Source: Escherichia coli (lineage in GTDB: Bacteria > Pseudomonadota > Gammaproteobacteria > Enterobacterales > Enterobacteriaceae). From it: 64,000 nucleotides of DNA. The stretch is from the NCBI RefSeq assembly GCF_003018255.1, contig NZ_CP027440.1, one strand, 5' to 3'. Numbering within the stretch: the first letter of the stretch is position 1; each line of letters starts with the position of its first letter. Shown here piece by piece: positions 6 to 58,587 of the stretch. Made by a program: the position numbers and the translations under genes. Under the pieces are notes generated by a model. It saw only the letters and a list, made by a program, of their open reading frames with translations, searched no databases and was not told where the DNA came from.

Positions 6-251
6 ATGCGCATTACTATTTACACTCGTAACGATTGCGTTCAGTGCCACGCCACCAAAAGGGCGATGGAAAACCGGGGCTTTGACTTTGAAATGATTAA
101 TGTCGATCGCGTTCCTGAAGCGGCGGAAGCGCTGCGTGCTCAGGGCTTTCGTCAGTTGCCGGTCGTGATTGCAGGCGATCTTAGCTGGTCTGGTTTCCGT
201 CCGGACATGATTAACCGTCTGCATCCAGCGCCACACGCGGCCAGTGCATGA
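6..251 (+). CDS. nrdH: glutaredoxin-like protein NrdH
   Basis: 81-aa ORF; translation recognised as NrdH; heads the nrdHIEF cluster. Confidence 0.9.
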
Positions 252-658
252 GCCAGCTCGTCTACTTCTCCAGCAGCTCCGAAAATACGCAGCGTTTTAT
301 CGAACGTTTAGGGCTGCCCGCGGTGCGCATTCCGCTCAATGAGCGGGAACGGATTCAGGTAGACGAGCCTTACATCCTGATCGTGCCCTCTTACGGCGGC
401 GGCGGTACGGCTGGCGCGGTGCCACGACAGGTCATTCGCTTTTTAAACGACGAGCATAACCGGGCGTTGCTGCGCGGCGTTATTGCTTCGGGTAATCGCA
501 ACTTTGGTGAGGCGTATGGCCGCGCCGGAGATGTGATTGCCCGGAAATGCGGCGTGCCGTGGCTGTACCGCTTTGAACTCATGGGTACGCAAAGCGATAT
601 CGAAAACGTTCGTAAAGGAGTAACCGAATTTTGGCAACGACAACCGCAGAACGCCTGA
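248..658 (+). CDS. nrdI: flavodoxin-like ribonucleotide reductase stimulatory protein NrdI
   Basis: 136-aa ORF overlapping nrdH stop by 4 bp; recognised as NrdI. Confidence 0.9.
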
Positions 659-2775
659 CGCAGGAAACGATGGATTATCACGCTCTGAATGCGATGCTTA
701 ACCTTTACGATAGCGCAGGTCGCATTCAGTTCGATAAAGACCGCCAGGCCGTTGACGCCTTTATTGCGACGCATGTGCGTCCGAACAGTGTGGCCTTCAG
801 TAGCCAGCAGCAGCGCCTGAACTGGCTGGTTAACGAAGGTTACTATGATGAAAGTGTCCTTAATCGCTACTCTCGCGATTTTGTCATTACGCTGTTTGCC
901 CACGCACACGCCAGCGGTTTTCGTTTTCAGACATTCCTCGGAGCATGGAAGTTTTACACCAGCTATACGTTGAAGACATTCGACGGTAAGCGTTATCTGG
1001 AAGATTTTGCCGATCGAGTCACGATGGTGGCGCTGACGCTGGCACAAGGCGATGAAACACTGGCGACGCAACTGACCGATGAGATGCTGTCAGGACGCTT
1101 TCAGCCTGCAACACCGACATTCCTCAACTGTGGTAAGCAGCAGCGCGGCGAACTGGTTTCCTGTTTTTTGCTGCGTATTGAAGACAATATGGAGTCGATT
1201 GGCCGGGCAGTAAATTCCGCACTGCAACTGTCGAAACGCGGCGGCGGCGTTGCATTTTTGCTGTCGAATCTGCGGGAAGCGGGCGCGCCAATTAAACGTA
1301 TTGAAAATCAATCTTCTGGCGTGATTCCGGTGATGAAAATGCTGGAAGACGCATTTTCCTATGCCAACCAGCTCGGCGCGCGTCAGGGTGCTGGCGCAGT
1401 CTATTTACATGCTCATCATCCCGATATTCTGCGTTTTCTCGATACAAAACGGGAAAATGCCGACGAAAAAATCCGCATTAAAACACTGTCGCTGGGCGTG
1501 GTGATCCCGGATATCACTTTCCATCTGGCAAAAGAGAATGCGCAGATGGCGCTGTTTTCGCCCTATGACATAGAGCGAGTTTATGGCAAGCCATTTGCCG
1601 ATGTCGCCATCAGTGAACACTATGACGAACTGGTTGCCGATGAACGCATTCGCAAAAAATACCTCAACGCCCGTGATTTCTTCCAGCGACTGGCAGAGAT
1701 CCAGTTTGAGTCTGGCTATCCGTACATCATGTATGAAGACACGGTTAACCGTGCTAACCCTATCGCCGGGCGCATAAATATGAGCAATCTCTGCTCAGAA
1801 ATTTTGCAGGTTAACAGCGCCTCAGAATATGACGAGAATCTCGACTATGCCCGTACAGGCCATGATATTTCCTGCAATTTAGGTTCGTTGAATATTGCCC
1901 ACACCATGGATTCCCCCGACTTTGCCCGCACGGTAGAGACTGCCGTGCGCGGTTTAACGGCAGTATCAGATATGAGTCATATCCGCAGCGTGCCGTCCAT
2001 CGAAGCCGGAAATGCCGCCTCGCACGCCATCGGACTGGGGCAGATGAATTTACACGGTTATCTGGCGCGAGAAGGCATCGCTTATGGATCGCCGGAAGCA
2101 CTCGATTTCACCAATCTCTATTTCTATACCATCACCTGGCACGCACTGCGTACCTCGATGTTGCTGGCGCGCGAACGCGGTGAAACCTTCGCCGGGTTCA
2201 AACAGTCACGCTATGCCAGTGGTGAATATTTTAGCCAATATCTGCAAGGGAACTGGCAGCCGAAAACGGCGAAAGTTGGCGAACTGTTTACCCGTAGCGG
2301 TATTACGTTACCTACCCGTGAGATGTGGGCGCAGCTGCGCGACGACGTGATGCGCTACGGCATTTACAACCAGAATCTTCAGGCGGTGCCGCCAACCGGT
2401 TCTATCTCTTATATCAACCATGCTACGTCGAGTATTCATCCGATTGTGGCGAAAGTAGAGATACGCAAAGAGGGCAAAACAGGACGCGTTTACTACCCTG
2501 CCCCGTTTATGACTAACGAGAATCTGGCGCTGTATCAGGACGCTTACGAAATTGGCGCAGAAAAGATCATCGACACCTACGCGGAAGCGACTCGCCATGT
2601 CGATCAGGGGCTGTCGCTGACGCTGTTTTTCCCCGATACCGCCACCACTCGCGATATCAACAAAGCGCAGATTTACGCCTGGCGCAAGGGTATCAAAACG
2701 CTCTATTACATTCGCCTGCGTCAGATGGCGCTGGAAGGCACTGAAATTGAAGGCTGCGTCTCCTGTGCACTTTAA
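631..2775 (+). CDS. nrdE: class Ib ribonucleotide reductase alpha subunit
   Basis: 714-aa ORF; recognised as NrdE; overlaps nrdI 3' end. Confidence 0.93.
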
Positions 2776-3744
<969 letters not shown>

Positions 3745-4099
3745 GGGGGTTATTTTCAAAAATATCACTACCCGCTGCAGGGAAATAATTCCCGCCAAAT
3801 AGCTTTATATCACGCAAATAATTTGTGGTGATCTACACTGATACTCTGTTGCATTATTCGCCTGAAACCACAATATTCAGGCGTTTTTTTGCTATCTTTG
3901 ACAAAAAATATCAACTTTTCTCGATTTGCTCTCAGCCCTTATATCATGGGAAATTCCGGCGATTTGCTCACATCAATATTCATGCCACATTTGCCATCAG
4001 GGGTTGCCTCAGATTCTCAGTATGTTAGGGTAGAAAAAAGTGACTATTTCCATTGGGTAATGTATCGACATAAACAAATAACAGGAATCTTTCTATTGC

Positions 4100-5302
4100 A
4101 TGGCAATTAAATTAGAAATTAAAAATCTTTATAAAATATTTGGTGAGCATCCACAGCGAGCTTTCAAATATATCGAACAAGGACTTTCAAAAGAACAAAT
4201 TCTGGAAAAAACTGGGCTATCGCTTGGCGTAAAAGACGCCAGTCTGGCCATTGAAGAAGGCGAGATATTTGTCATCATGGGATTATCCGGTTCGGGTAAA
4301 TCCACAATGGTACGCCTTCTCAATCGCCTGATTGAACCCACCCGCGGGCAAGTGCTGATTGATGGTGTGGATATTGCCAAAATATCCGACGCCGAACTCC
4401 GTGAGGTGCGCAGAAAAAAGATTGCGATGGTCTTCCAGTCCTTTGCCTTAATGCCGCATATGACCGTGCTGGACAATACTGCGTTCGGTATGGAACTGGC
4501 CGGAATTAATGCCGAAGAACGCCGGGAAAAAGCCCTTGATGCACTGCGTCAGGTCGGGCTGGAAAATTATGCCCACAGCTACCCGGATGAACTCTCTGGC
4601 GGGATGCGTCAACGTGTGGGATTAGCCCGCGCGTTAGCGATTAATCCGGATATATTATTAATGGACGAAGCCTTCTCAGCACTCGATCCATTAATTCGCA
4701 CCGAGATGCAGGATGAGCTGGTAAAATTACAGGCGAAACATCAGCGCACCATTGTCTTTATTTCCCACGATCTCGATGAAGCTATGCGTATTGGCGACCG
4801 AATTGCCATTATGCAAAATGGTGAAGTGGTACAGGTCGGCACACCGGATGAAATTCTCAATAATCCGGCGAATGATTATGTCCGTACCTTCTTCCGTGGC
4901 GTAGATATTAGCCAGGTGTTCAGTGCGAAAGATATTGCTCGCCGGACACCGAACGGCTTAATTCGTAAAACCCCCGGCTTCGGCCCGCGTTCAGCACTGA
5001 AATTATTGCAGGATGAAGATCGCGAATATGGCTACGTCATCGAACGCGGTAATAAGTTTGTCGGCGCGGTGTCTATCGATTCGCTTAAAGCCGCGTTAAC
5101 GCTGCAGCAAGGTCTTGATGCGGCGCTGATTGATGCGCCGTTAGCGGTCGATGCACAAACGCCTCTTAGCGAGTTGCTCTCTCATGTCGGACAGGCACCC
5201 TGTGCGGTGCCCGTGGTCGACGAGGACCAACAGTATGTCGGCATCATTTCGAAAGGAATGCTGCTGCGCGCTTTAGATCGTGAGGGGGTAAATAATGGCT
5301 GA
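4100..5302 (+). CDS. proV: glycine betaine/proline ABC transporter ATPase
   Basis: 400-aa ORF with Walker [10 protein letters not shown] and ABC signature LSGGMRQR; recognised as ProV. Confidence 0.93.
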
Positions 5303-6359
5303 TCAAAATAATCCGTGGGATACCACGCCAGCGGCGGACAGTGCTGCACAATCCGCAGACGCCTGGGGTACACCGGCTGCTGCACCGACTGACGGCGGTG
5401 GTGCTGACTGGCTGACCAGTACGCCTGCGCCAAACGTCGAGCATTTTAATATTCTCGATCCGTTCCATAAAACACTGATCCCGCTCGACAGTTGGGTCAC
5501 TGAAGGGATCGACTGGGTCGTTACCCATTTCCGTCCCGTCTTCCAGGGCGTGCGCGTTCCGGTTGATTATATCCTCAACGGTTTCCAGCAATTGCTGCTG
5601 GGTATGCCCGCTCCGGTGGCGATTATCGTTTTCGCTCTCATCGCCTGGCAGATTTCCGGGGTCGGAATGGGCGTGGCGACGCTGGTTTCGCTGATTGCCA
5701 TCGGCGCAATCGGTGCCTGGTCGCAGGCCATGGTTACCCTGGCGCTGGTGTTAACCGCCCTGCTGTTCTGTATCGTCATAGGTTTGCCGTTGGGGATCTG
5801 GCTGGCGAGAAGTCCGCGAGCGGCGAAAATTATTCGTCCACTGCTTGATGCCATGCAGACCACGCCCGCGTTTGTTTATCTGGTGCCAATCGTCATGCTG
5901 TTTGGTATCGGTAACGTGCCGGGCGTGGTGGTGACGATCATCTTTGCGCTGCCGCCGATTATCCGTCTGACGATTCTGGGAATTAACCAGGTTCCGGCGG
6001 ATCTGATTGAAGCCTCGCGCTCATTCGGTGCCAGCCCGCGCCAGATGCTGTTCAAAGTTCAGTTACCGCTGGCGATGCCGACCATTATGGCGGGCGTTAA
6101 CCAGACGCTGATGCTGGCCCTTTCTATGGTGGTCATCGCCTCGATGATTGCCGTCGGCGGGCTGGGTCAGATGGTGCTTCGCGGTATCGGTCGTCTGGAT
6201 ATGGGGCTTGCCACCGTTGGCGGCGTCGGGATTGTGATCCTCGCCATTATCCTCGACCGCCTGACGCAGGCCGTTGGGCGCGACTCACGCAGTCGCGGCA
6301 ACCGTCGCTGGTACACCACTGGCCCTGTCGGTCTGCTGACCCGCCCATTCATTAAGTAA
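5295..6359 (+). CDS. proW: glycine betaine/proline ABC transporter permease
   Basis: 354-aa hydrophobic ORF overlapping proV by 8 bp; recognised as ProW. Confidence 0.92.
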
Positions 6360-6416
6360 CTCTGCACTTGCCCGGTGACGCCGGGCATTATCACCCTGCC
6401 AAAAAAAGGAATAACA

Positions 6417-7409
6417 ATGCGACATAGCGTACTTTTTGCGACAGCGTTTGCCACGCTTATCTCTACACAAACTTTTGCTGCCGACCTGCCGGGCAAAGGC
6501 ATTACTGTTAATCCGGTTCAGAGCACCATCACCGAAGAAACTTTCCAGACGCTGCTGGTCAGCCGCGCGCTGGAGAAATTAGGTTATACCGTCAATAAAC
6601 CCAGCGAAGTGGATTACAACGTTGGCTACACCTCGCTTGCTTCCGGCGATGCAACCTTCACCGCAGTGAACTGGACGCCACTGCATGACAACATGTACGA
6701 AGCTGCCGGTGGCGATAAGAAATTTTATCGTGAAGGAGTATTTGTTAACGGCGCGGCACAGGGTTACCTGATCGATAAGAAAACTGCCGACCAGTACAAA
6801 ATTACCAACATCGCGCAACTTAAAGATCCGAAGATCGCCAAACTGTTCGATACCAACGGCGACGGTAAAGCGGATTTAACCGGCTGTAACCCAGGCTGGG
6901 GCTGCGAAGGTGCGATCAACCACCAGCTTGCCGCGTATGGACTGACCAATACCGTGACGCATAATCAGGGGAACTACGCAGCGATGATGGCTGACACCAT
7001 CAGTCGTTACAAAGAGGGTAAGCCGGTGTTTTACTACACCTGGACGCCGTACTGGGTGAGTAACGAACTGAAACCGGGGAAAGATGTGGTCTGGTTGCAG
7101 GTGCCGTTCTCCGCACTGCCGGGCGATAAAAATGCCGATACCAAACTGCCGAATGGCGCGAATTACGGCTTCCCGGTCAGTACCATGCATATCGTTGCCA
7201 ACAAAGCCTGGGCCGAGAAAAACCCGGCAGCAGCGAAACTGTTTGCCATTATGCAGTTACCAGTGGCTGATATTAACGCCCAGAACGCCATTATGCATGA
7301 CGGCAAAGCCTCAGAAGGCGATATTCAGGGCCACGTTGATGGCTGGATCAAAGCCCACCAGCAGCAGTTCGATGGCTGGGTGAATGAGGCGCTGGCAGCG
7401 CAGAAGTAA
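6417..7409 (+). CDS. proX: glycine betaine/proline periplasmic binding protein
   Basis: ORF 6375-7409; start placed at internal ATG 6417 ([11 protein letters not shown] signal peptide, about 330 aa); recognised as ProX. Confidence 0.88.
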
Positions 7410-7417
7410 TTTTTATT

Positions 7418-7498
7418 CGGGCGGATAAGGCGTTTTTGCCTCATCCGCCGCTCTGTACACAATGCCTGATGCGACGCTGGTGCGTCTTATCATACCTA
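7418..7498. repeat. REP-like palindromic elements downstream of proX
   Basis: Two GC-rich imperfect palindromes (gcggataaggcg...cgccgcatccg type and gcctgatgcgacgctggtgcgtcttatca) in the proX-ygaY spacer. Confidence 0.6.
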
Positions 7499-7600
7499 CA
7501 AACCACACCGCACATTTCAACAATCTATCTTTCATCCCATATTCATCAACATCCGCTATTATTGATTTCCAGCTTAATCATCACCTGATGAACAAAAATA

Positions 7601-8785
7601 ATGACTAAACCTAATCATGAGCTTAGCCCGGCGCTGATCGTGCTGATGTCTATCGCCACCGGCCTGGCGGTAGCCAGTAACTATTACGCCCAGCCATTGC
7701 TCGACACCATCGCGCGTAACTTTTCCCTTTCCGCCAGTTCGGCAGGCTTTATTGTTACCGCCGCGCAGTTGGGCTATGCCGCAGGTCTGCTGTTTCTTGT
7801 TCCCCTCGGTGATATGTTTGAACGCCGCCGCCTGATTGTCTCGATGACCTTACTGGCAGCAGGCGGCATGTTAATCACTGCCAGCAGTCAGTCGCTGGCG
7901 ATGATGATCCTCGGTACAGCATTAACCGGTTTATTTTCAGTCGTGGCACAAATTCTGGTTCCACTGGCAGCGACGCTGGCTTCACCGGACAAACGCGGCA
8001 AAGTGGTTGGCACCATTATGAGCGGTCTGCTATTGGGGATCTTACTCGCACGGACCGTTGCCGGATTGCTGGCGAATCTCGGCGGCTGGCGCACCGTCTT
8101 TTGGGTTGCTTCGATGTTAATGGCACTGATGGCGCTGGCATTATGGCGTGGTCTGCCACAAATGAAATCAGAAACCCACCTTAACTACCCACAGTTGTTG
8201 GGTTCCGTTTTCAGCATGTTTATCAGCAATAAGATCCTGCGCACCCGCGCGTTGCTGGGCTGCCTGACCTTTGCCAACTTCAGCATTCTCTGGACCTCAA
8301 TGGCCTTTTTGCTTGCCGCTCCACCTTTTAACTACAGCGATGGTGTAATTGGTCTGTTTGGGCTTGCGGGAGCTGCCGGAGCGTTGGGCGCTCGTCCGGC
8401 GGGCGGTTTTGCCGATAAGGGCAAATCGCACCACACCACAACTTTCGGTCTGCTGCTGCTGTTACTTTCATGGCTGGCAATCTGGTTTGGTCACACTTCC
8501 GTACTGGCGCTGATTATCGGCATCCTGGTGCTGGACCTCACCGTGCAGGGCGTGCATATCACTAACCAGACGGTAATTTATCGAATACACCCTGATGCGC
8601 GTAATCGCCTGACCGCAGGTTACATGACCAGCTACTTTATTGGCGGTGCCGCTGGTTCGCTAATTTCAGCCTCAGCCTGGCAACATGGCGGTTGGGCTGG
8701 CGTGTGTCTGGCTGGCGCGACGATTGCCCTGGTTAACTTACTGGTCTGGTGGCGAGGTTTTCATCGTCAGGAAGCCGCAAATTAA
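7601..8785 (+). CDS. ygaY: MFS-family transporter (intact ygaY-like)
   Basis: 394-aa uninterrupted hydrophobic ORF with multiple predicted TM segments; recognised as YgaY family. Confidence 0.8.
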   Translation: MTKPNHELSPALIVLMSIATGLAVASNYYAQPLLDTIARNFSLSASSAGFIVTAAQLGYAAGLLFLVPLGDMFERRRLIVSMTLLAAGGMLITASSQSLAMMILGTALTGLFSVVAQILVPLAATLASPDKRGKVVGTIMSGLLLGILLARTVAGLLANLGGWRTVFWVASMLMALMALALWRGLPQMKSETHLNYPQLLGSVFSMFISNKILRTRALLGCLTFANFSILWTSMAFLLAAPPFNYSDGVIGLFGLAGAAGALGARPAGGFADKGKSHHTTTFGLLLLLLSWLAIWFGHTSVLALIIGILVLDLTVQGVHITNQTVIYRIHPDARNRLTAGYMTSYFIGGAAGSLISASAWQHGGWAGVCLAGATIALVNLLVWWRGFHRQEAAN

Positions 8786-8908
8786 GCAATCAGCAACCGT
8801 TTTCGTGGCTTTACACTTATAAGGGTGTTAAGAAGCCCATCAGTCTGATAAGGTTAAGATATTCATTCAGTCTATTTATAATATTAACAATCGTTAAGCG
8901 TACACTCT

Positions 8909-9646
8909 ATGGAAAGCCCTACTCCACAGCCTGCTCCTGGTTCGGCGACCTTCATGGAAGGATGCAAAGACAGTTTACCGATTGTTATTAGTTATATTCC
9001 GGTGGCCTTTGCGTTCGGTCTGAATGCGACCCGTCTGGGATTCTCTCCTCTCGAAAGCGTTTTTTTCTCCTGCATCATTTATGCAGGCGCGAGCCAGTTC
9101 GTCATTACCGCGATGCTGGCAGCCGGGAGTAGTTTGTGGGTTGCTGCACTGACCGTCATGGCAATGGATGTTCGCCATGTTTTGTATGGCCCGTCACTGC
9201 GTAGCCGTATTATTCAGCGTCTGCAAAAATCGAAAACCGCCCTGTGGGCATTTGGCCTGACGGATGAGGTTTTTGCCGCCGCAACCGCAAAACTGGTACG
9301 CAATAATCGCCGCTGGAGCGAGAACTGGATGATCGGCATTGCCTTCAGTTCATGGTCATCGTGGGTATTTGGTACGGTAATAGGGGCATTCTCCGGCAGC
9401 GGCTTGCTGCAAGGATATCCCGCCGTTGAAGCAGCATTAGGTTTTATGCTTCCGGCACTCTTTATGAGTTTCCTGCTCGCCTCTTTCCAGCGCAAACAAT
9501 CTCTTTGCGTTACCGCAGCGTTAGTTGGTGCCCTTGCAGGCGTAACGCTATTTTCTATTCCCGTCGCCATTCTGGCAGGCATTGTCTGTGGCTGCCTCAC
9601 TGCGTTAATCCAGGCATTCTGGCAAGGAGCGCCCGATGAGCTATGA
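8909..9646 (+). CDS. ygaZ: AzlC-family branched-chain amino acid (L-valine) exporter subunit
   Basis: 245-aa membrane ORF; recognised as YgaZ. Confidence 0.88.
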
Positions 9647-9971
9647 GGTTCTGCTGCTTGGGTTACTGGTTGGCGCGGCGAATTATTGCTTCCGCTATCT
9701 GCCGCTGCGCCTGCGTGTGGGTAATGCCCGCCCAACCAAACGTGGCGCGGTAGGTATTTTGCTCGACACCATTGGCATCGCCTCGATATGCGCTCTGCTG
9801 GTTGTTTCTACCGCACCAGAAGTGATGCACGATACACGCCGTTTCGTGCCCACACTGGTCGGCTTCGCGGTACTGGGTGCCAGTTTCTATAAAACACGCA
9901 GCATTATCATCCCAACACTGCTTAGTGCGCTGGCCTATGGGCTAGCCTGGAAAGTGATGGCGATTATATAA
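9636..9971 (+). CDS. ygaH: AzlD-family exporter small subunit
   Basis: 111-aa membrane ORF overlapping ygaZ 3' end; recognised as YgaH. Confidence 0.88.
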
Positions 9972-10061
9972 CCCACAAGAATCATTTTTCTAAAACAATA
10001 CATTTACTTTATTTGTCACTGTCGTTACTATATCGGCTGAAATTAATGAGGTCATACCCAA

Positions 10062-10592
10062 ATGGATAGTTCGTTTACGCCCATTGAACAAATGCTAAAA
10101 TTTCGCGCCAGCCGCCACGAAGATTTTCCTTATCAGGAGATCCTTCTGACCCGTCTTTGCATGCATATGCAAAGCAAGCTGCTGGAAAACCGCAATAAAA
10201 TGCTGAAGGCTCAGGGGATTAACGAGACGTTGTTTATGGCGTTGATTACGCTGGAGTCTCAGGAAAACCACAGTATTCAGCCTTCTGAATTGAGTTGTGC
10301 TCTTGGATCATCCCGTACCAACGCGACGCGTATTGCCGATGAACTGGAAAAACGCGGTTGGATCGAACGTCGTGAAAGCGATAACGATCGCCGCTGCCTG
10401 CATCTGCAATTAACGGAAAAAGGTCACGAGTTTTTGCGCGAGGTTTTACCGCCGCAGCATAACTGCCTGCATCAACTCTGGTCCGCGCTCAGCACAACAG
10501 AAAAAGACCAGCTCGAGCAAATCACCCGCAAATTGCTCTCCCGTCTCGACCAGATGGAACAGGACGGTGTGGTTCTCGAAGCGATGAGCTAA
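10062..10592 (+). CDS. mprA: MarR-family transcriptional repressor of emrAB
   Basis: 176-aa ORF immediately upstream of emrAB; recognised as MprA/EmrR. Confidence 0.92.
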
Positions 10593-10718
10593 CGCGTCAT
10601 CTCGCTCAAAAATCCAGATTTATAAAAGAAAAAATGACTGGCCAGCATCGCAACATGCTGGCCTTTTTGGCAAGCAGGTCGGCTCAGCCGATGAGTTAAG
10701 AAGATCGTGGAGAACAAT

Positions 10719-11891
10719 ATGAGCGCAAATGCGGAGACTCAAACCCCGCAGCAACCGGTAAAGAAGAGCGGCAAACGTAAGCGTCTGCTCCTCCTTCTCA
10801 CCTTGCTCTTTATAATTATTGCCGTAGCGATAGGGATTTATTGGTTTTTGGTACTGCGTCATTTCGAAGAAACTGATGACGCATACGTGGCAGGGAATCA
10901 GATTCAAATTATGTCTCAGGTGTCTGGCAGCGTGACGAAAGTCTGGGCCGATAACACCGATTTTGTAAAAGAAGGCGATGTGCTGGTCACTCTCGACCCG
11001 ACAGATGCTCGCCAGGCGTTTGAAAAAGCCAAAACTGCACTGGCTTCCAGCGTTCGCCAAACCCACCAGCTGATGATTAACAGCAAACAGTTGCAGGCGA
11101 ATATTGAGGTGCAAAAAATCGCCCTCGCGAAAGCACAAAGCGACTACAACCGCCGTGTGCCGCTGGGCAATGCCAACCTGATTGGTCGCGAAGAGCTGCA
11201 ACACGCCCGCGACGCCGTTACCAGTGCCCAGGCACAACTGGACGTCGCTATTCAACAATACAATGCCAATCAGGCGATGATTCTGGGGACTAAACTGGAA
11301 GATCAGCCTGCCGTGCAACAGGCTGCCACCGAAGTACGTAACGCCTGGCTGGCGCTGGAGCGTACCCGTATTGTCAGTCCGATGACCGGTTATGTCTCCC
11401 GCCGCGCGGTACAGCCTGGGGCGCAAATTAGCCCAACGACGCCGCTGATGGCGGTCGTTCCAGCCACCAATATGTGGGTGGATGCCAACTTTAAAGAGAC
11501 GCAGATTGCCAATATGCGTATCGGTCAGCCGGTCACCATCACCACCGATATTTACGGCGATGATGTGAAATACACCGGAAAAGTGGTTGGTCTGGATATG
11601 GGCACAGGTAGCGCGTTCTCACTGCTTCCGGCGCAAAATGCAACCGGTAACTGGATCAAAGTCGTTCAGCGTCTGCCTGTTCGTATTGAACTGGACCAGA
11701 AACAGCTCGAGCAATACCCGCTGCGTATCGGTTTGTCCACGCTGGTGAGCGTCAATACCACTAACCGTGACGGTCAGGTACTGGCAAATAAAGTACGTTC
11801 CACACCGGTAGCGGTAAGCACCGCGCGTGAAATCAGCCTGGCACCTGTCAATAAACTGATCGACGATATCGTAAAAGCTAACGCTGGCTAA
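10719..11891 (+). CDS. emrA: multidrug efflux membrane fusion protein
   Basis: ORF 10707-11891; start placed at MSANAETQ (390 aa); recognised as EmrA. Confidence 0.92.
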   Translation: MSANAETQTPQQPVKKSGKRKRLLLLLTLLFIIIAVAIGIYWFLVLRHFEETDDAYVAGNQIQIMSQVSGSVTKVWADNTDFVKEGDVLVTLDPTDARQAFEKAKTALASSVRQTHQLMINSKQLQANIEVQKIALAKAQSDYNRRVPLGNANLIGREELQHARDAVTSAQAQLDVAIQQYNANQAMILGTKLEDQPAVQQAATEVRNAWLALERTRIVSPMTGYVSRRAVQPGAQISPTTPLMAVVPATNMWVDANFKETQIANMRIGQPVTITTDIYGDDVKYTGKVVGLDMGTGSAFSLLPAQNATGNWIKVVQRLPVRIELDQKQLEQYPLRIGLSTLVSVNTTNRDGQVLANKVRSTPVAVSTAREISLAPVNKLIDDIVKANAG

Positions 11892-11907: not shown

Positions 11908-13446
11908 ATGCAACAGCAAAAACCGCTGGAAGGCGCGCAACTGGTCATTATGACGATTGCGCTGTCACTGGCGACATTCATGCAGGTGCTGGACTCCACC
12001 ATTGCTAACGTGGCGATCCCCACTATCGCCGGGAATCTGGGCTCATCGCTCAGCCAGGGAACGTGGGTAATCACTTCTTTCGGGGTGGCGAATGCCATCT
12101 CGATCCCGCTTACCGGCTGGCTGGCAAAGCGCGTCGGGGAAGTGAAACTGTTCCTCTGGTCCACCATCGCCTTTGCTATTGCGTCGTGGGCGTGTGGTGT
12201 CTCCAGCAGCCTGAATATGCTGATCTTCTTCCGCGTGATTCAGGGGATTGTCGCCGGGCCGCTGATCCCGCTTTCGCAAAGTCTATTGCTTAATAACTAC
12301 CCGCCAGCCAAACGCTCGATCGCGCTGGCGTTGTGGTCGATGACGGTGATTGTCGCGCCAATTTGCGGCCCGATCCTCGGCGGTTATATCAGCGATAATT
12401 ACCACTGGGGCTGGATATTCTTCATCAACGTACCGATTGGCGTGGCGGTGGTGTTGATGACACTGCAAACCCTGCGCGGACGTGAAACCCGCACCGAACG
12501 GCGGCGGATTGATGCCGTGGGGCTGGCACTGCTGGTTATTGGTATCGGTAGCCTGCAGATTATGCTCGACCGCGGTAAAGAGCTGGACTGGTTCTCATCA
12601 CAGGAAATTATCATCCTTACCGTGGTGGCAGTGGTGGCTATCTGCTTCCTGATTGTCTGGGAGCTGACCGACGATAACCCGATAGTCGATCTGTCGTTGT
12701 TTAAGTCGCGCAACTTCACCATCGGCTGCTTGTGTATCAGCCTCGCGTATATGCTCTACTTCGGCGCGATTGTTCTGCTGCCGCAGTTGTTGCAGGAGGT
12801 CTACGGTTACACGGCAACGTGGGCAGGTCTGGCCTCTGCGCCGGTAGGGATTATTCCGGTGATCCTGTCGCCGATTATCGGCCGCTTCGCGCATAAACTG
12901 GATATGCGGCGGCTGGTAACCTTCAGCTTTATTATGTATGCCGTCTGCTTCTACTGGCGCGCCTATACCTTTGAACCAGGTATGGATTTTGGCGCGTCGG
13001 CCTGGCCGCAGTTTATCCAGGGGTTTGCGGTGGCCTGCTTCTTTATGCCGCTGACCACCATTACGCTGTCTGGTTTGCCACCGGAACGACTGGCGGCGGC
13101 ATCGAGCCTCTCTAACTTTACGCGAACGCTGGCGGGGTCTATCGGCACATCCATCACCACCACCATGTGGACCAACCGCGAGTCGATGCACCATGCGCAG
13201 TTGACTGAGTCGGTAAATCCGTTCAACCCGAATGCCCAGGCGATGTATAGTCAACTGGAAGGACTGGGGATGACGCAACAGCAGGCATCAGGCTGGATTG
13301 CCCAGCAGATCACCAATCAGGGGCTGATTATTTCTGCCAATGAGATCTTCTGGATGTCAGCCGGGATATTCCTCGTCTTGCTGGGGCTGGTGTGGTTTGC
13401 TAAACCGCCATTTGGCGCAGGTGGCGGCGGAGGTGGTGCGCACTAA
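11908..13446 (+). CDS. emrB: MFS multidrug efflux pump
   Basis: 512 aa from ATG 11908 (MQQQKPLEG); recognised as EmrB. Confidence 0.93.
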   Translation: MQQQKPLEGAQLVIMTIALSLATFMQVLDSTIANVAIPTIAGNLGSSLSQGTWVITSFGVANAISIPLTGWLAKRVGEVKLFLWSTIAFAIASWACGVSSSLNMLIFFRVIQGIVAGPLIPLSQSLLLNNYPPAKRSIALALWSMTVIVAPICGPILGGYISDNYHWGWIFFINVPIGVAVVLMTLQTLRGRETRTERRRIDAVGLALLVIGIGSLQIMLDRGKELDWFSSQEIIILTVVAVVAICFLIVWELTDDNPIVDLSLFKSRNFTIGCLCISLAYMLYFGAIVLLPQLLQEVYGYTATWAGLASAPVGIIPVILSPIIGRFAHKLDMRRLVTFSFIMYAVCFYWRAYTFEPGMDFGASAWPQFIQGFAVACFFMPLTTITLSGLPPERLAAASSLSNFTRTLAGSIGTSITTTMWTNRESMHHAQLTESVNPFNPNAQAMYSQLEGLGMTQQQASGWIAQQITNQGLIISANEIFWMSAGIFLVLLGLVWFAKPPFGAGGGGGGAH

Positions 13447-13703: not shown

Positions 13704-14411
13704 ATGAATACCCAACGAAAATACGGGAGAACCTGGCATTATCCTTTCTCCCCCGGCACCACCAGCGATGACCGCATTAATGCCGATTACTGGCAGGATT
13801 TACAGGCCATCACGCAATTGGTGCACACAGAAAAACTCGACGGTGAAAATAACTGCCTTAACCGCTACGGCGTGTTTGCCCGTTCCCATGCCGCGCCTAC
13901 GCAGTCGGCATGGACCTATAAAATTCGCCAACGCTGGCAACTGCTGAAAAACGATCTCGGCGATCTGGAGTTGTTTGGTGAAAATCTTTATGCCGTGCAT
14001 TCGATTGAATATCGCGCCCTGGAGCAGGATTTTTATCTGTTTGCCGTTCGCTGCCAGGATATGTGGCTGAGCTGGGAAGAGGTGCAGTTTTACGCCGCTC
14101 TGTTTGATTTCCCCTGCGTTCCCGAAATCTCCGGCCCGCAACCGGGGAATGATGAAAAAAGCTGGCAACGTGATTTTCTGGCGCTGACCAATGCGCGCGG
14201 CGCGTTCGATCCCTGGGATACGCAAACCGGGCAACCCTGTACGCTGGAAGGCATTGTCAGCAGGAATCGTGATGCGTTTTCCGTCGCTGACTTTTCGCAT
14301 AACGTCTTCAAGTATGTGCGCAAAAATCATGTCAAAATCACCGTCCACTGGAAACGACACTGGCAACGGGCGCGGATGGCCCATGAGTTCGATTATGGAG
14401 AACAGTCATGA
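13704..14411 (+). CDS. putative ATP-dependent polynucleotide (RNA) ligase-like nucleotidyltransferase
   Basis: 235-aa ORF; motif I KLDGEN (K44, nt 13833-13850), motif III LFGEN (about residue 91), motif IV EGIVSR (182-187), motif [10 protein letters not shown] (203-211), in ligase order and Rnl2-like spacing; call rests on motif reading only. Confidence 0.62.
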
Positions 14412-15520
14412 TTTGGCAGCTTACCGACGACAAACGCTGGTCGGCGCTACGTCAGCGTTTTAGCTGGGTTGAGGAGATGCATCACACGCCACAAGACCCG
14501 GAGCATCATGGTGAAGGTGACGTCGGCGTGCATACCGAAATGGTGCTGAACGCCCTCGTTACTCAGCCAGAATTCCAGCAACTCCCCGCTCAACAGCAGG
14601 AAGTTTTATGGGCGGCGGCGTTATTGCATGATGTTGAAAAGCGCAGCACTACCGTGCAGGAAAACGGACGTATTCAGTCGCCTGGCCATGCTCGTCGGGG
14701 CGAACTGACGGCCCGACAAATTTTATGGCGCGATATCCCAACGCCGTTCGTGCTACGCGAGCAAATTGTTGCGCTGGTGCGTCTGCATGGGTTACCGCTA
14801 TGGTTACTGGAACGTCCGGAACCGGAGCGTTTGCTGCTCACGGCTGCAATGCGCATCGACACGCGTCTGCTCGCTTTGCTTGCTCGTGCCGATCTGCTTG
14901 GTCGCCAAAGCCCGGATCAGCAATCAATGCTGGAACGCATCGATCTGTTCGAGCTGTTTTGCCATGAGCAACAATGCTGGGGAAAAATGCGCCCGTTCGT
15001 TTCTGATTCCGCACGCTGGCACTACCTGACTCATGAGCAAAGTTCTCCTGATTTTGTTCCCTGGGAGGCTGAACCTTTTGAGGTTATTTTGCTGTGTGGC
15101 TTACCGGGTATGGGCAAAGATCGCTATATCAGTGAACAGTGCCAGGGAATGGACGTTATCAGCCTTGATGATATGCGGCGGCGAATCAATGCCAGTCCGG
15201 ACGACAAAACCGCCACCGGGCGTATTGTGCAACAGGCAAAAGAAGAGGCGCGCGTTTTTTTACGCCAGAAAAAGCCGTTCATCTGGAATGCAACGAACAT
15301 TACCCGCCAGCTGCGCAGCCAGCTCATCAGTCTGTTTACGGCTTACGGCGCACGAGTAAAAATCGTTTATCTGGAAGTGCCATGGGCGCAATGGAAGCAG
15401 CAAAATGCCAGACGCGAGTATGCAGTTCCTGAAGCGGTCGTGATGCGGATGGCCTCAAGGCTGGAAGTTCCTCAACCTGATGAAGCACATAGCGTGGAAT
15501 ATCGGATGACTGACAGGTAA
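14408..15520 (+). CDS. putative bifunctional HD-domain phosphoesterase / P-loop polynucleotide kinase (HD-Pnk-like end-healing enzyme)
   Basis: 370-aa ORF whose ATG overlaps upstream stop (ATGA); N-terminal His cluster H33-H34, H42 and HD dyad H74-D75; C-terminal Walker A-like GLPGMGKD (nt 15098-15121); domain assignment by motif only. Confidence 0.6.
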
Positions 15521-15570: not shown

Positions 15571-16086
15571 CTAAATGTGCAGTTCCTGCAACTTCTCTTT
15601 CGGCAGCGCCAGTTCTTCGTTGCTGTTGATGCGCACGTCACGTTCCAGAATGCTACGCGCAATATCCTGCGCTTCCTGCAACGAGTGCATCTGGTAAGTG
15701 CCACACTGGTAGACGTTCAGTTCCGGGATCTGATTCTGATCCTGCACTTTCAGCACGTCTTCCATTGCCGCTTTCCAGGCATCAGCAACACGCTGCTCAT
15801 CTGGCGTACCAATCAGACTCATATAAAAACCGGTGCGGCAGCCCATTGGCGAGATATCGATAATCTCTACACCATTACCGTTAAGATGGTTACGCATAAA
15901 ACCAGCAAACAGGTGCTCCAGGGTATGGATCCCTCTTTCTGGCATCACTTCTTTGTTCGGCACGCAGAAGCGCAGATCGAACACGGTGATTGCGTCGCCA
16001 TGCGGGGTGTTCATTGTTTTCGCCACCCGAACTGCAGGCGCTTCCATCCGGGTATGATCGACTGTGAAGCTATCTAACAACGGCAT
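15571..16086 (-). CDS. luxS: S-ribosylhomocysteine lyase (autoinducer-2 synthase)
   Basis: 171-aa ORF; recognised as LuxS (HTLEHL metal-binding motif). Confidence 0.95.
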
Positions 16087-18857: not shown

Positions 18858-19004
18858 GGTCTTCTCGCAAGTCGAAAAATATGACGCTACTTTAGCGTAA
18901 TTGCTTGATTTTGTCGCTGATGGAGAAGGAGAAGAAAATTCAGGAAATGGATAAAGTAGTTATTTAGAAATGAGATATTTTTGAAGGAAATTTTTTGGAG
19001 AAGA

Positions 19005-19137
19005 TGGTGCATCCGGGAGGATGACTCACTGGCGTTCGCCCTTCGGGCCGCTGCTGGCGCAACGTTATCCTCCCTGGTGCCTGCGGTTAATACCGCTACC
19101 TCTTCGATACCTTCATTGCTGAAGGTTACGGAGAATA
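19005..19137 (-). repeat. tRNA-Arg 3'-end-derived hairpin repeat (pseudo-tRNA fragment), copy 1
   Basis: Plus strand begins with the 17-nt tRNA-Arg 3' end incl. CCA (TGGTGCATCCGGGAGGA) then diverges into GGGAGGAT...ATCCTCCC inverted repeat; about 90% identical to copy at 19558-19691. Confidence 0.7.
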
Positions 19138-19214
19138 TGGTGCATCCGGGAGGATTCGAACCTCCGACCGCTCGGTTCGTAGCCGAGTACTCTATCCAGC
19201 TGAGCTACGGATGC
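19138..19214 (-). tRNA. argQ: tRNA-Arg (anticodon ACG)
   Basis: 77 nt; reverse complement matches remembered E. coli tRNA-Arg(ACG) incl. CCA; gene name by position is tentative. Confidence 0.9.
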
Positions 19215-19277
19215 ATTGGGAAAATTTATTTTACTGCTGATATTGATATCGCTACTAAAGCCATATCAAGTAAGAGA

Positions 19278-19354
19278 TGGTGCATCCGGGAGGATTCGAA
19301 CCTCCGACCGCTCGGTTCGTAGCCGAGTACTCTATCCAGCTGAGCTACGGATGC
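19278..19354 (-). tRNA. argZ: tRNA-Arg (anticodon ACG)
   Basis: Identical 77-nt copy; name by position tentative. Confidence 0.9.
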
Positions 19355-19416
19355 ATCGGGAAATTTATTTTACTGCTGATATTGATACCGCTACTAAAGC
19401 CATATCAAGTAAGAGA

Positions 19417-19493
19417 TGGTGCATCCGGGAGGATTCGAACCTCCGACCGCTCGGTTCGTAGCCGAGTACTCTATCCAGCTGAGCTACGGATGC
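19417..19493 (-). tRNA. argY: tRNA-Arg (anticodon ACG)
   Basis: Identical 77-nt copy; name by position tentative. Confidence 0.9.
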
Positions 19494-19557
19494 ATCTGGA
19501 AACTTACTTTACTGCAGATTTTTTGATACCGCTACTAAAGCCGTATCAAGTAAGAGA

Positions 19558-19691
19558 TGGTGCATCCGGGAGGATTACTCGCCTTGCGGCTCGCCCTTCG
19601 GGCCGTTGCTAAAGCAACGTTATCCTCCCTGGTGCCTGCGGTTATTACCGCCACCTCTTCCATACCTTCATCGCTGAAGGTACGTAGAATA
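19558..19691 (-). repeat. tRNA-Arg 3'-end-derived hairpin repeat (pseudo-tRNA fragment), copy 2
   Basis: Starts with TGGTGCATCCGGGAGGATT then diverges; same inverted-repeat core (cgcccttcgggcc ... atcctccc) as copy 1. Confidence 0.7.
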
Positions 19692-19768
19692 TGGTGCATC
19701 CGGGAGGATTCGAACCTCCGACCGCTCGGTTCGTAGCCGAGTACTCTATCCAGCTGAGCTACGGATGC
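19692..19768 (-). tRNA. argV: tRNA-Arg (anticodon ACG)
   Basis: Identical 77-nt copy; name by position tentative. Confidence 0.9.
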
Positions 19769-19771
19769 AAA

Positions 19772-55652: not shown

Positions 55653-57731
55653 ATGTCATATACACCGATGAGTGATCTCGGACAGCAAGGGTTGTTCGAC
55701 ATCACTCGGACACTATTGCAGCAGCCCGATCTGGCCTCGCTGTGTGAGGCTCTTTCGCAACTGGTAAAGCGTTCTGCGCTCGCCGACAACGCGGCTATTG
55801 TGTTGTGGCAAGCGCAGACTCAACGTGCGTCTTATTACGCATCGCGTGAAAAAGACACCCCCATTAAATATGAAGACGAAACTGTTCTGGCACACGGTCC
55901 GGTACGCAGCATTTTGTCGCGCCCTGATACGCTGCATTGCAGTTACGAAGAATTTTGTGAAACCTGGCCGCAGCTGGCCACAGGTGGGCTATACCCCAAA
56001 TTTGGTCACTATTGCCTGATGCCACTGGCGGCGGAAGGGCATATTTTTGGTGGCTGTGAATTTATTCGTCATGACGATCGCCCCTGGAGCGAAAAAGAGT
56101 TCAATCGTCTGCAAACATTTACGCAGATCGTTTCTGTCGTCACCGAACAAATCCAGAGCCGCGTCGTTAACAATGTCGACTATGAGTTGTTATGCCGGGA
56201 ACGCGATAACTTCCGCATCCTGGTCGCCATCACTAACGCGGTGCTTTCCCGCCTGGATATGGACGAACTGGTCAGCGAAGTCGCCAAAGAAATCCACTAC
56301 TACTTCGACATTGACGATATCAGCATCGTCTTACGCAGCCACCGTAAAAACAAACTCAACATCTACTCCACTCACTATCTTGATAAACAGCATCCCGCTC
56401 ACGAACAGAGCGAAGTCGATGAAGCCGGAACCCTCACCGAACGCGTCTTCAAAAGTAAAGAGATGCTGTTGATTAATCTCCACGAGCGGGACGATTTAGC
56501 CCCCTATGAACGCATGTTGTTCAACACCTGGGGCAACCAGATTCAAACCTTGTGCCTGTTACCGCTGATGTCTGGCGACACCATGCTGGGCGTGCTAAAA
56601 CTGGCGCAATGCGAAGAGAAAGTCTTTACCACTACCAATCTGAGCTTACTGCGCCAGATTGCCGAACGTGTGGCAATCGCTGTCGATAACGCCCTCGCCT
56701 ATCAGGAAATTCATCGTCTGAAAGAACGGCTGGTTGATGAAAACCTCGCCCTGACCGAGCAGCTCAACAATGTTGATAGTGAATTTGGCGAGATTATTGG
56801 CCGCAGCGAAGCCATGTACAGCGTACTTAAACAAGTGGAAATGGTGGCGCAAAGTGACAGTACCGTTCTGATCCTCGGTGAAACTGGTACAGGTAAAGAG
56901 CTGATTGCCCGCGCGATCCATAATCTCAGTGGGCGTAATAATCGCCGTATGGTCAAAATGAACTGCGCGGCGATGCCTGCCGGATTGCTGGAAAGCGATC
57001 TATTTGGTCATGAGCGTGGGGCTTTTACCGGTGCCAGCGCTCAGCGCATTGGTCGTTTTGAACTGGCGGATAAAAGCTCACTATTCCTCGATGAAGTGGG
57101 CGATATGCCGCTGGAGTTACAGCCGAAGTTGCTGCGTGTATTACAGGAACAGGAGTTTGAACGTCTCGGCAGCAACAAAATCATTCAGACGGACGTACGT
57201 TTAATTGCCGCGACTAACCGCGATCTGAAAAAAATGGTCGCCGACCGAGAGTTCCGTAGCGATCTCTATTACCGTCTGAACGTATTCCCGATCCACCTGC
57301 CGCCACTACGCGAGCGTCCGGAAGATATTCCGCTGCTGGCGAAAGCCTTTACCTTCAAAATTGCCCGTCGTCTGGGGCGCAATATCGACAGCATTCCTGC
57401 CGAGACGCTGCGCATCCTGAGCAACATGGAATGGCCGGGCAACGTGCGTGAGCTGGAAAACGTCATTGAGCGCGCGGTATTGCTAACACGCGGCAACGTG
57501 CTGCAGCTGTCATTGCCAGATATTGCTTTACCAGAACCTGAAACGCCGCCTGCCGCAACGGTTGTCGCCCAGGAGGGCGAAGATGAATATCAGTTGATTG
57601 TTCGCGTGCTGAAAGAAACAAACGGCGTGGTTGCCGGGCCTAAAGGCGCTGCGCAACGTCTGGGGCTGAAACGCACGACTCTGCTGTCACGGATGAAGCG
57701 ACTGGGAATTGATAAATCGGCATTGATTTAA
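55653..57731 (+). CDS. fhlA: formate hydrogenlyase sigma-54-dependent transcriptional activator
   Basis: ORF 55617-57731; start at MSYTPMSDLGQQGLF (692 aa); AAA+ GETGTGKE and GAFTGA motifs. Confidence 0.93.
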   Translation: MSYTPMSDLGQQGLFDITRTLLQQPDLASLCEALSQLVKRSALADNAAIVLWQAQTQRASYYASREKDTPIKYEDETVLAHGPVRSILSRPDTLHCSYEEFCETWPQLATGGLYPKFGHYCLMPLAAEGHIFGGCEFIRHDDRPWSEKEFNRLQTFTQIVSVVTEQIQSRVVNNVDYELLCRERDNFRILVAITNAVLSRLDMDELVSEVAKEIHYYFDIDDISIVLRSHRKNKLNIYSTHYLDKQHPAHEQSEVDEAGTLTERVFKSKEMLLINLHERDDLAPYERMLFNTWGNQIQTLCLLPLMSGDTMLGVLKLAQCEEKVFTTTNLSLLRQIAERVAIAVDNALAYQEIHRLKERLVDENLALTEQLNNVDSEFGEIIGRSEAMYSVLKQVEMVAQSDSTVLILGETGTGKELIARAIHNLSGRNNRRMVKMNCAAMPAGLLESDLFGHERGAFTGASAQRIGRFELADKSSLFLDEVGDMPLELQPKLLRVLQEQEFERLGSNKIIQTDVRLIAATNRDLKKMVADREFRSDLYYRLNVFPIHLPPLRERPEDIPLLAKAFTFKIARRLGRNIDSIPAETLRILSNMEWPGNVRELENVIERAVLLTRGNVLQLSLPDIALPEPETPPAATVVAQEGEDEYQLIVRVLKETNGVVAGPKGAAQRLGLKRTTLLSRMKRLGIDKSALI

Positions 57732-57775
57732 CAGATGTGGTTATACTCGATCAACATTCAATGAAAGGAGGCAGT

Positions 57776-58204
57776 ATGGCAGTTTCAGCAAGAAATCAAT
57801 TAACCGGAACAGTTAGCACAGTAGCAATGGGCGCTGTGAATGATGAAGTAGAACTGACGCTGGCAGGTGGTGCAAAGCTGGTGGCAATTGTGACTCACAG
57901 CAGCCAGCAAGCGCTGGGTCTGGCGAAAGGGAAAGAAGCGATTGCCCTGATTAAAGCCCCGTGGGTCACGCTGGCAACGGAAGACTGTGGACTGAAATTC
58001 TCTGCTCGCAACCAGTTTGCTGGCAGCGTGTCGACAATCACCGAAGGCGCAGTGAACGCCACTGTCCATATCAAAACGGATGCGGGTTTTGAAATTGTGG
58101 CAGTGGTAACAAATGAAAGTCAGGATGAAATGAAACTCACCACTGGCTCGCGCGTTATTGCATTGATCAAAGCATCAGCCATCCTGATTGCCACCAAAGC
58201 GTAA
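57776..58204 (+). CDS. tandem Mop/TOBE-domain (molybdate/tungstate-binding) protein
   Basis: ORF 57737-58204; start placed at ATG 57776 preceded by AAGGAGG at 57765-57771; two about 70-aa repeats of the Mop fold; hairpin terminator follows. Confidence 0.7.
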   Translation: MAVSARNQLTGTVSTVAMGAVNDEVELTLAGGAKLVAIVTHSSQQALGLAKGKEAIALIKAPWVTLATEDCGLKFSARNQFAGSVSTITEGAVNATVHIKTDAGFEIVAVVTNESQDEMKLTTGSRVIALIKASAILIATKA

Positions 58205-58215
58205 ACGCCTTATTT

Positions 58216-58250
58216 GCCGGAGAGTATGGCTCTCCGGCAGATTTATTTCT
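58216..58250. terminator. bidirectional hairpin terminator between Mop gene and ygbA
   Basis: GCCGGAGAG-TATGG-CTCTCCGGC followed by T-rich ATTTATTTCTTT. Confidence 0.65.
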
Positions 58251-58587
58251 TTGGACGATATTTTTCTGGCAACTCCGGCACCGGACGCTTGTCATCGATG
58301 AGATGACGCACGGTTAAGATCGGATGACGCCACAGCATTCTCGGCCCGGCCCAACGCATAATCTGTTTCATCTCTTCACGCTTTGCAGGCTGGTAACAGT
58401 GCACCGGACACTGCTTACAGGCTGGTTTCTCTTCACCGAACACACATTTATCCAGCCGCTTTTGCGCGTAAGCAAACAACGCCTCGTAATGCTCCGGCTC
58501 TGCTGACGCCTGCGGGCATTTCGCTTGATAAAGATCGATCATTTTTTTAATCGTCAGTTTTTCACGAGAGATACGCTTGCCGGACAT
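58243..58587 (-). CDS. ygbA: nitrous-oxide-stimulated-promoter-family protein
   Basis: 114-aa Cys-rich ORF; recognised as YgbA. Confidence 0.85.
   Translation of the reverse strand: MSGKRISREKLTIKKMIDLYQAKCPQASAEPEHYEALFAYAQKRLDKCVFGEEKPACKQCPVHCYQPAKREEMKQIMRWAGPRMLWRHPILTVRHLIDDKRPVPELPEKYRPKK

Follow-up and report, generated by a model that had tools for sequence, protein, structure and literature searches.

An intact, probably ancestral ygaY in Escherichia coli and the 7-bp deletion behind its K-12 pseudogene

The stretch of Escherichia coli DNA analysed here, 64,000 nucleotides of contig NZ_CP027440.1 and hereafter called the window, carries at positions 7601-8785 what is very probably (about 0.9) an intact, ancestral and selection-maintained ygaY, encoding a 394-aa inner-membrane secondary transporter of the MFS with 12 helices, an N-in/C-in topology and a place in the YnfM family. 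It is an ordinary core enterobacterial transporter gene, and its contrast with the K-12 pseudogene is already known: RefSeq lists the K-12 copy as a pseudogene and other E. coli genomes routinely carry the label 'MFS transporter' at this locus. For ygaY, K-12 is unrepresentative of its species, since BL21(DE3) and most wild strains have an intact copy that is under strong purifying selection. To this picture the present analysis adds the mechanism of the K-12 lesion and the allele on which it arose, the restriction of the lesion to K-12 among the listed carriers, a structural model and a family signature.

The ygaY frame and its surroundings

In the ORF listing, the gene is one continuous plus-strand frame of 394 codons from an ATG start to a TAA stop. 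PGAP places an 'MFS transporter' (WP_000165690.1) at identical coordinates in strain 2014C-3338, whose record shows 100% identity over window positions 7401-8900. Together with the Pfam MFS_1 match described below, these observations confirm the intact 394-aa MFS reading frame that the first-pass annotation had proposed for this locus. The features on which the argument rests are the following.

7410-7600, plus strand: proX-ygaY spacer, 191 bp, 42% GC, with a hairpin and a REP-like sequence
7601-8785, plus strand: ygaY coding sequence, a 12-TM MFS transporter of the YnfM family (TC 2.A.1.36), from the ORF, Pfam, PGAP, AlphaFold2 and Foldseek
7853-7870, plus strand: site of the K-12 lesion, CTG GCA GCA GGC GGC ATG, encoding L85 A86 A87 G88 G89 M90 in TM3
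8786-8908, plus strand: ygaY-ygaZ spacer, 123 bp, 36% GC

The gene is flanked by proX, which ends at 7409, and ygaZ, which starts at 8909, within the order nrdHIEF-proVWX-ygaY-ygaZH-emrR-emrAB, and no dedicated regulator gene lies next to it. Its position between proVWX and ygaZH-emrRAB, its length of 394 aa and a protein identity of at least 93% place it in the enterobacterial ygaY orthologue group.

The proX-ygaY spacer must hold the putative promoter and translation-initiation region of ygaY. A consensus scan of its 191 bp returned no sigma-70-like promoter, and inspection of the sequence upstream of the gene revealed no obvious Shine-Dalgarno sequence. Just 3' of the proX stop lies a hairpin with 12-nt arms (7420-7431 and 7438-7449, 92% complementary) and a 6-nt loop, followed within the region 7410-7500 by a REP-like palindromic sequence. 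A 1.5-kb query around ygaY matched 7163 places in 5418 genomes, which is consistent with a dispersed repeat in this spacer, and strains 98207 and E1620 carry about 100 extra bp there. At the other end of the spacer, a six-codon mini-ORF (ATG AAC AAA AAT AAT GAC TAA; 7588-7608, plus strand) overlaps the ygaY start out of frame, in A-rich surroundings where an obvious Shine-Dalgarno sequence was likewise not seen. The terminator scan gave 'terminator-like' matches within the gene at background frequency. Downstream, a promoter-like site precedes ygaZ at 8854-8882 (TTAAGA-17-TATAAT, 10 of 12 positions agreeing with the consensus), and this is a consensus match only.

The K-12 lesion and its spread

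In MG1655 (NC_000913.3), ygaY (b2681, 2808316-2809493, 1178 bp) is annotated as a pseudogene, and PGAP labels the gene 'frameshifted' in another K-12 record; the pseudogene status given in the first-pass annotation is therefore correct. A chromatin study of proVWX calls the K-12 gene cryptic, with in-frame stops, and elsewhere in the literature it is treated as a known pseudogene and has served as a neutral deletion control or an integration site. Pairwise alignment, the check that had been suggested, located the sole K-12 lesion as a 7-bp deletion of gene nucleotides 255-261 (window 7855-7861), inside TM3, so that the K-12 copy is neither identical to the window gene nor intact over this span and the contrast drawn at first inspection stands. 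The K-12 translation ends after residue 88, all 88 residues being native, within the AlphaFold2 helix 75-94. Fourteen stops follow in the frame that ends there, and the native frame is open over the remaining 318 codons. Apart from the deletion, 33 synonymous and 2 nonsynonymous substitutions separate the two genes.

The allele on which the deletion arose survives in nature. In pig isolate PI12 (NZ_CP074005.1) the 394-aa frame of ygaY is intact and matches K-12 at 1178/1178 shared bases, and its lesion site reads CTG GCG GCA TGC GGC ATG, a perfect tandem GCGGCAT-GCGGCAT of which K-12 has a single unit. The corresponding codons are GCA GCA GGC GGC in the window and GCG GCA GGC GGC in BL21(DE3), both with G88. 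Since Citrobacter encodes the residues A-A-G-G at this site, as the window does, G88 is the older state. These comparisons show that a natural G88C allele gave rise to the K-12 pseudogene. In that allele point substitutions had produced a perfect 7-bp tandem duplication, completed by G88C; one GCGGCAT unit is missing from K-12, and the resulting frameshift ends translation after residue 88, in TM3. As the simplest reading, we propose that slipped-strand replication removed the unit, and that this happened once, in the K-12 lineage. The window allele does not have the perfect repeat, the feature that made the K-12-type allele prone to slippage.

To follow the spread of the deletion, an 80-bp query spanning the K-12 junction was compared with 5405 complete E. 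coli genomes. It matched at 100% over 80 bp in 354 of them, which carry the deletion, and spanned 87 bp in the other 5051, which keep the seven bases; nothing fell between the two classes. The 60 carriers that were listed among the 354 are all K-12 laboratory strains or derivatives, including MG1655, C600, DH5alpha, DH1, J53, RR1, HMS174 and NCM3722, and the early stock WG1 also carries the deletion. The exact 87-bp two-copy K-12-type allele occurs in 679 genomes (a wider identity band that includes one-mismatch alleles takes in 1098). A synthetic junction for a three-copy allele matched the 354 K-12 records and no other genome, each of these records aligning as two flanking pieces, and given that no three-copy allele was found, the site is not phase-variable. 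Because the lesion is the loss of one 7-bp repeat unit and the parent allele is intact in 679 genomes, restoration of the K-12 gene would amount to a 7-bp edit.

Independent ygaY lesions outside K-12 exist but are rare. Strain Ec1119 (carrots, Germany; locus L014, 482-1671) has gained 5 bp at ygaY nucleotide 829, where CACCA goes from 2 to 3 copies, and in PCP06021 (seawater, Galapagos; locus L013, 2701-2859) a deletion fuses ygaY at nucleotide ~159 with ygaH, and ygaZ is lost. Among the 37 non-K-12 records of the ranked sample, with PCP06021 left aside as its deliberately weakest row, only about 1 carried another lesion. Such sporadic lesions in natural isolates show that ygaY is dispensable in some settings. 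The extra 100 bp of strain 98207 are intergenic and do not disrupt the gene.

Ancestry, selection and strain background

Intact orthologues of 394 aa are present in Shigella, E. fergusonii (97%), E. marmotae (98%), E. albertii (95%) and Citrobacter (93%), and the Citrobacter array is identical (nrdEF-proVWX-ygaY-ygaZH-emrRAB). Nei-Gojobori estimates of omega are 0.029 between the window and PI12, which carries the K-12-type allele (dS 0.12), and 0.043 between the window and Citrobacter (dS 1.09). The orthologues, the Citrobacter synteny and the low omega together indicate that the intact gene is ancestral and under strong purifying selection. The first-pass annotation had likewise spoken of ancestral content, and for ygaY this is borne out by the 5051 of 5405 genomes that keep the seven bases, by the orthologues in other species and genera, and by the gene order and A-A-G-G residues of Citrobacter.

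It had also been suggested that the window comes from a non-K-12 lineage. This holds: across the 7 kb from proV to emrA the window shares 97.8% identity with MG1655, clinical isolates at 99.8% are its nearest complete genomes, and an accessory cassette is present between emrB and luxS. The intact ygaY itself is the norm of the species; it indicates only 'not K-12' and no special lineage. Strain 2014C-3338 (NZ_CP027452.1) was considered as the source and ruled out, its identity being 99.07% over the whole window despite 100% around ygaY, with the best complete genome at 99.8%. The same record has about 125 extra bases at window position about 3800, in the nrdF-proV spacer, where its BLAST blocks (127-3801 and 3799-64000) are offset. 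Compared with MG1655, the window has a mosaic substitution density from about 4250 to 11500, with 9-15 differences per 250 bp over proX and ygaY (6500-8750) and 0-5 per 250 bp from 8750 on (ygaZ, ygaH, emrR, emrA); within ygaY there are 2 differences in nucleotides 1-254 and 33 afterwards. This distribution of substitutions suggests recombination breakpoints in or around ygaY.

Three further elements of the window deserve mention. The cassette between emrB (which ends at 13446) and luxS (15571-16086, minus strand) occupies 13704-15520 on the plus strand and consists of two overlapping genes, the former for a 235-aa RNA ligase (PF09414, E=3.5e-28) and the latter for a 370-aa protein whose C-terminal domain is AAA_33 kinase-like (E=3.5e-32). 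The pair looks like an RNA-repair kinase and ligase. Just 998 of the 5426 complete E. coli genomes carry it at full length, and a PADLOC scan of its proteins gave no defence-system match. An ORF of 155 codons, listed with a GTG start (57737-58204, plus strand), lies between fhlA (which ends at 57731) and ygbA (58243-58587, minus strand); it corresponds to the 'TOBE domain-containing protein' of strain 2014C-3338 and is the 'Mop gene' of the first-pass annotation. Tandem repeats at about 19000-19770, with 92-97% identity and a period of about 140 bp, correspond to the run of tRNA-Arg genes annotated downstream of tRNA-Ser in a related record.

How else could an intact frame in the window and a broken one in K-12 be explained? 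The frame could be intact in a cryptic gene, a silent or decaying relic, with K-12 merely further along a path common to all lineages. The absence of a recognisable promoter or Shine-Dalgarno sequence upstream, the H-NS signal and H-NS/NAP-mediated bridge reported at K-12 ygaY and the independent lesions of Ec1119 and PCP06021 would fit such a relic, which is nonetheless very unlikely in view of an omega of 0.03-0.04 across a dS of about 1.1, a length that stays at 394 aa from Escherichia to Citrobacter with all family-invariant residues kept, and a frame that about 93% of genomes keep at the K-12 site, other lesions being confined to about 1 in 37 of the sampled non-K-12 records. It is also conceivable that the window's gene is a formerly broken copy, repaired or replaced through horizontal recombination. 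The mosaic substitution density does indicate that the region has been shuffled; however, the deletion is seen only in K-12-derived records, no ancestor of the window's lineage shows a sign of it and the outgroups share the intact structure and residues, which makes repair highly improbable. Finally, there is hardly any room for the view that the 7-bp difference, instead of being a mutation fixed in K-12, reflects reversible phase variation (a contingency locus) or an error of assembly. The K-12-type allele is indeed a perfect two-unit tandem repeat at the site, and the Ec1119 lesion is likewise a change in the copy number of a short repeat. However, the one-copy state recurs in 354 independently sequenced genomes, with 60 of the 60 listed being K-12 derivatives, the exact two-copy allele is found in 679 genomes and a three-copy allele in none, and the window itself carries no perfect repeat at the site. 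Two repeat units are, moreover, too few for efficient phase variation. Ancestral retention of an intact, selected ygaY, with a single fixed lesion in K-12, thus remains the preferred reading.

Fold, transport direction and related transporters

YgaY matches Pfam MFS_1 (PF07690) at 138.3 bits (E=3.8e-40, cutoff 33.4) and MFS_4 (PF06779) at 31.4 bits (cutoff 26.3), and since both scores exceed the gathering thresholds, the ORF at 7601-8785 has not arisen by chance. The hydrophobic regions resolve to 12 TM segments in a Kyte-Doolittle profile, and Lys/Arg clusters at the N-terminus, in the loops TM2-3, TM4-5, TM6-7, TM8-9 and TM10-11 and at the C-terminus correspond to the N-in/C-in MFS topology. 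A search of 1.84 billion representative proteins gave 1140 matches with E<=1e-30, and 104 full-length relatives with 33-55% identity were aligned. From this alignment, AlphaFold2 predicted 12 membrane-length helices with a mean pLDDT of 95.4 and a pTM of 0.93. The full set of hydrophobic segments noticed at first inspection is thereby recovered by hydropathy and by structure prediction alike, and the predicted model shows the canonical two-bundle MFS fold. Its elements, and the signatures taken from the 104-sequence alignment, are listed below by residue.

About 10-40, 45-65, 75-94, 99-126, 129-161 and 163-184: predicted helices of the N-terminal half
196-209: amphipathic short helix in the central loop of the model
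211-239, 247-272, 276-298, 301-327, 331-360 and 362-390: predicted helices of the C-terminal half
Y28-Y-x-Q31-P32-L: family signature in TM1
P68-L-G70-D71-x3-R-R-R: family signature at motif A
D312-x3-Q316-x5-N322-Q323: family signature in TM10

All the family-conserved residues are present in YgaY, namely Y28, Q31, P32, P68, G70, D71, R75-77, G137, G142, G146, R151 and G155 in the N-terminal half and G268, D272, D312, Q316, N322, Q323 and R336 in the C-terminal half. The MFS motif A of the TM2-TM3 loop (G-x3-D-[RK]-x-G-R-[RK]) is found as the variant V67-P-L-G-D71-M-F-E-R75-R-R77-L, in which P68 is invariant across the 104 relatives, 102 of them keep D71 and 86 keep R75; the TM8-TM9 loop holds a second copy of the motif, G268-x-x-x-D272. 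TM5 is rich in glycine (G133, G137, G142, G146, G155), and its R151 is kept in 103 of 104 relatives. The DHA1 motif C (G-x8-G-x3-G-P-x2-G-G) is absent from TM5, which has no G-P dipeptide, and it is for this reason that YgaY, DHA1-like by fold, is not filed under DHA1 (TC 2.A.1.2). A scan against NCBIfam gave 23 partial matches, none near its cutoff, and reached no named equivalog; the best were PRK03545 (SotB-type; 63.6 bits against a cutoff of 401) and Bcr/CflA TIGR00710 (48.8 against 200.9). A sequence search of the PDB returned weak matches only (GlcP, Qdr2, SotB). The fold search was more informative, with SotB, MdfA and NorA ranking first in Foldseek at TM-scores of 0.80-0.85 and 15-17% identity. 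With E. coli YnfM, YgaY shares 25% identity over its full length (residues 1-390, E=1e-19), and this similarity, together with orthology to K-12 ygaY/P76628, places it in the YnfM family (TC 2.A.1.36). TCDB holds E. coli YgaY (P76628) as 2.A.1.36.3, a member of the YnfM family with function unknown (PMC5417439).

Based on the fold, the family and an exporter-rich neighbourhood, YgaY would be a proton-coupled exporter that moves some small organic metabolite through an alternating-access cycle, and the membrane-embedded conserved residues D312 (TM10) and R151 (TM5) are candidates for coupling or substrate binding. Within the preferred reading, we hold this mechanism, including the part given to D312 and R151, to have a little better than even odds. 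The full-length alignments are best to efflux proteins, PRK03545 (SotB-type) and Cmx/CmrA in NCBIfam and 6kki in the PDB. An importer in the form of a solute:H+ symporter is the less likely alternative, with the balance of the evidence against it. The direction of transport cannot be read from MFS fold and sequence alone, YgaY lacks the canonical antiporter motif C, and some of the partial NCBIfam matches are to symporters, among them aromatic acid/H+ symporters (TIGR00895, N-terminal half), MhpT and sugar porters. On the other hand, the closest structures (SotB, MdfA, NorA) are exporters, the sequence aligns over its full length with exporters (PRK03545, Cmx/CmrA, Bcr/CflA), the family namesake YnfM is one too, and ygaY is part of a series of exporter genes that includes ygaZH and emrRAB, without linked catabolic genes or binding proteins in Escherichia or Citrobacter.

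As to the substrate of the putative exporter, YnfM of BL21(DE3) is reported to be a CCCP-sensitive glutarate exporter, and deletion of ynfM alone abolishes glutarate export in that strain (PMC12622518). The ygaY of BL21(DE3) is intact, so the loss of export without ynfM means that under those conditions YgaY does not back up YnfM in glutarate export, and glutarate is unlikely to be its substrate. The nearest non-enterobacterial relatives (P0124, P0125 and P0126; 50-57% identity) lie in three unrelated contexts that offered no clue to a substrate, and our literature searches found no transport or other experiment on any YgaY. Collections based on K-12 cannot reveal a ygaY phenotype. One could speculate, though we give the idea little weight, that YgaY matters physiologically as an exporter and has gone unnoticed because E. 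coli genetics (Keio, ASKA, transporter screens) mostly uses K-12. If so, ygaY could form an export island with ygaZH (a valine exporter) and emrRAB, and K-12 would differ from natural E. coli in its tolerance to, or efflux of, some metabolite.

Overall, three known systems frame the window's gene. The K-12 gene (b2681, P76628) occupies the same proX-ygaZ locus at ~97% nucleotide identity, and its reconstructed protein differs from that of the window at 3 residues (G88C, M172V, N210D); K-12 makes an 88-aa fragment at most, whereas the window copy is whole. YnfM (b1596; TC 2.A.1.36.1, 'acriflavin-sensitivity family'), whose reported glutarate export is described as proton-dependent, is, like YgaY, a 12-TM MFS protein of the same TCDB family, alignable over its full length, and the two have in common the TM1 Y-x-x-Q-P, a motif-A-like loop and, in a TM5 rich in glycine, a conserved Arg. 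They differ in genomic context, ynfM being paired with the divergent LysR-type gene ynfL. Finally, SotB (6kkk/6kkl), MdfA (4zow/6euq) and NorA (8ttf) have the same 12-helix architecture as YgaY, superposing with an rmsd of 2.4-4.1 Å over about 385 columns. However, YgaY is only 15-17% identical to these DHA1 antiporters, lacks their canonical motif C and stays below their NCBIfam cutoffs, and the resemblance is one of fold, and probably of mechanism, rather than of family membership.
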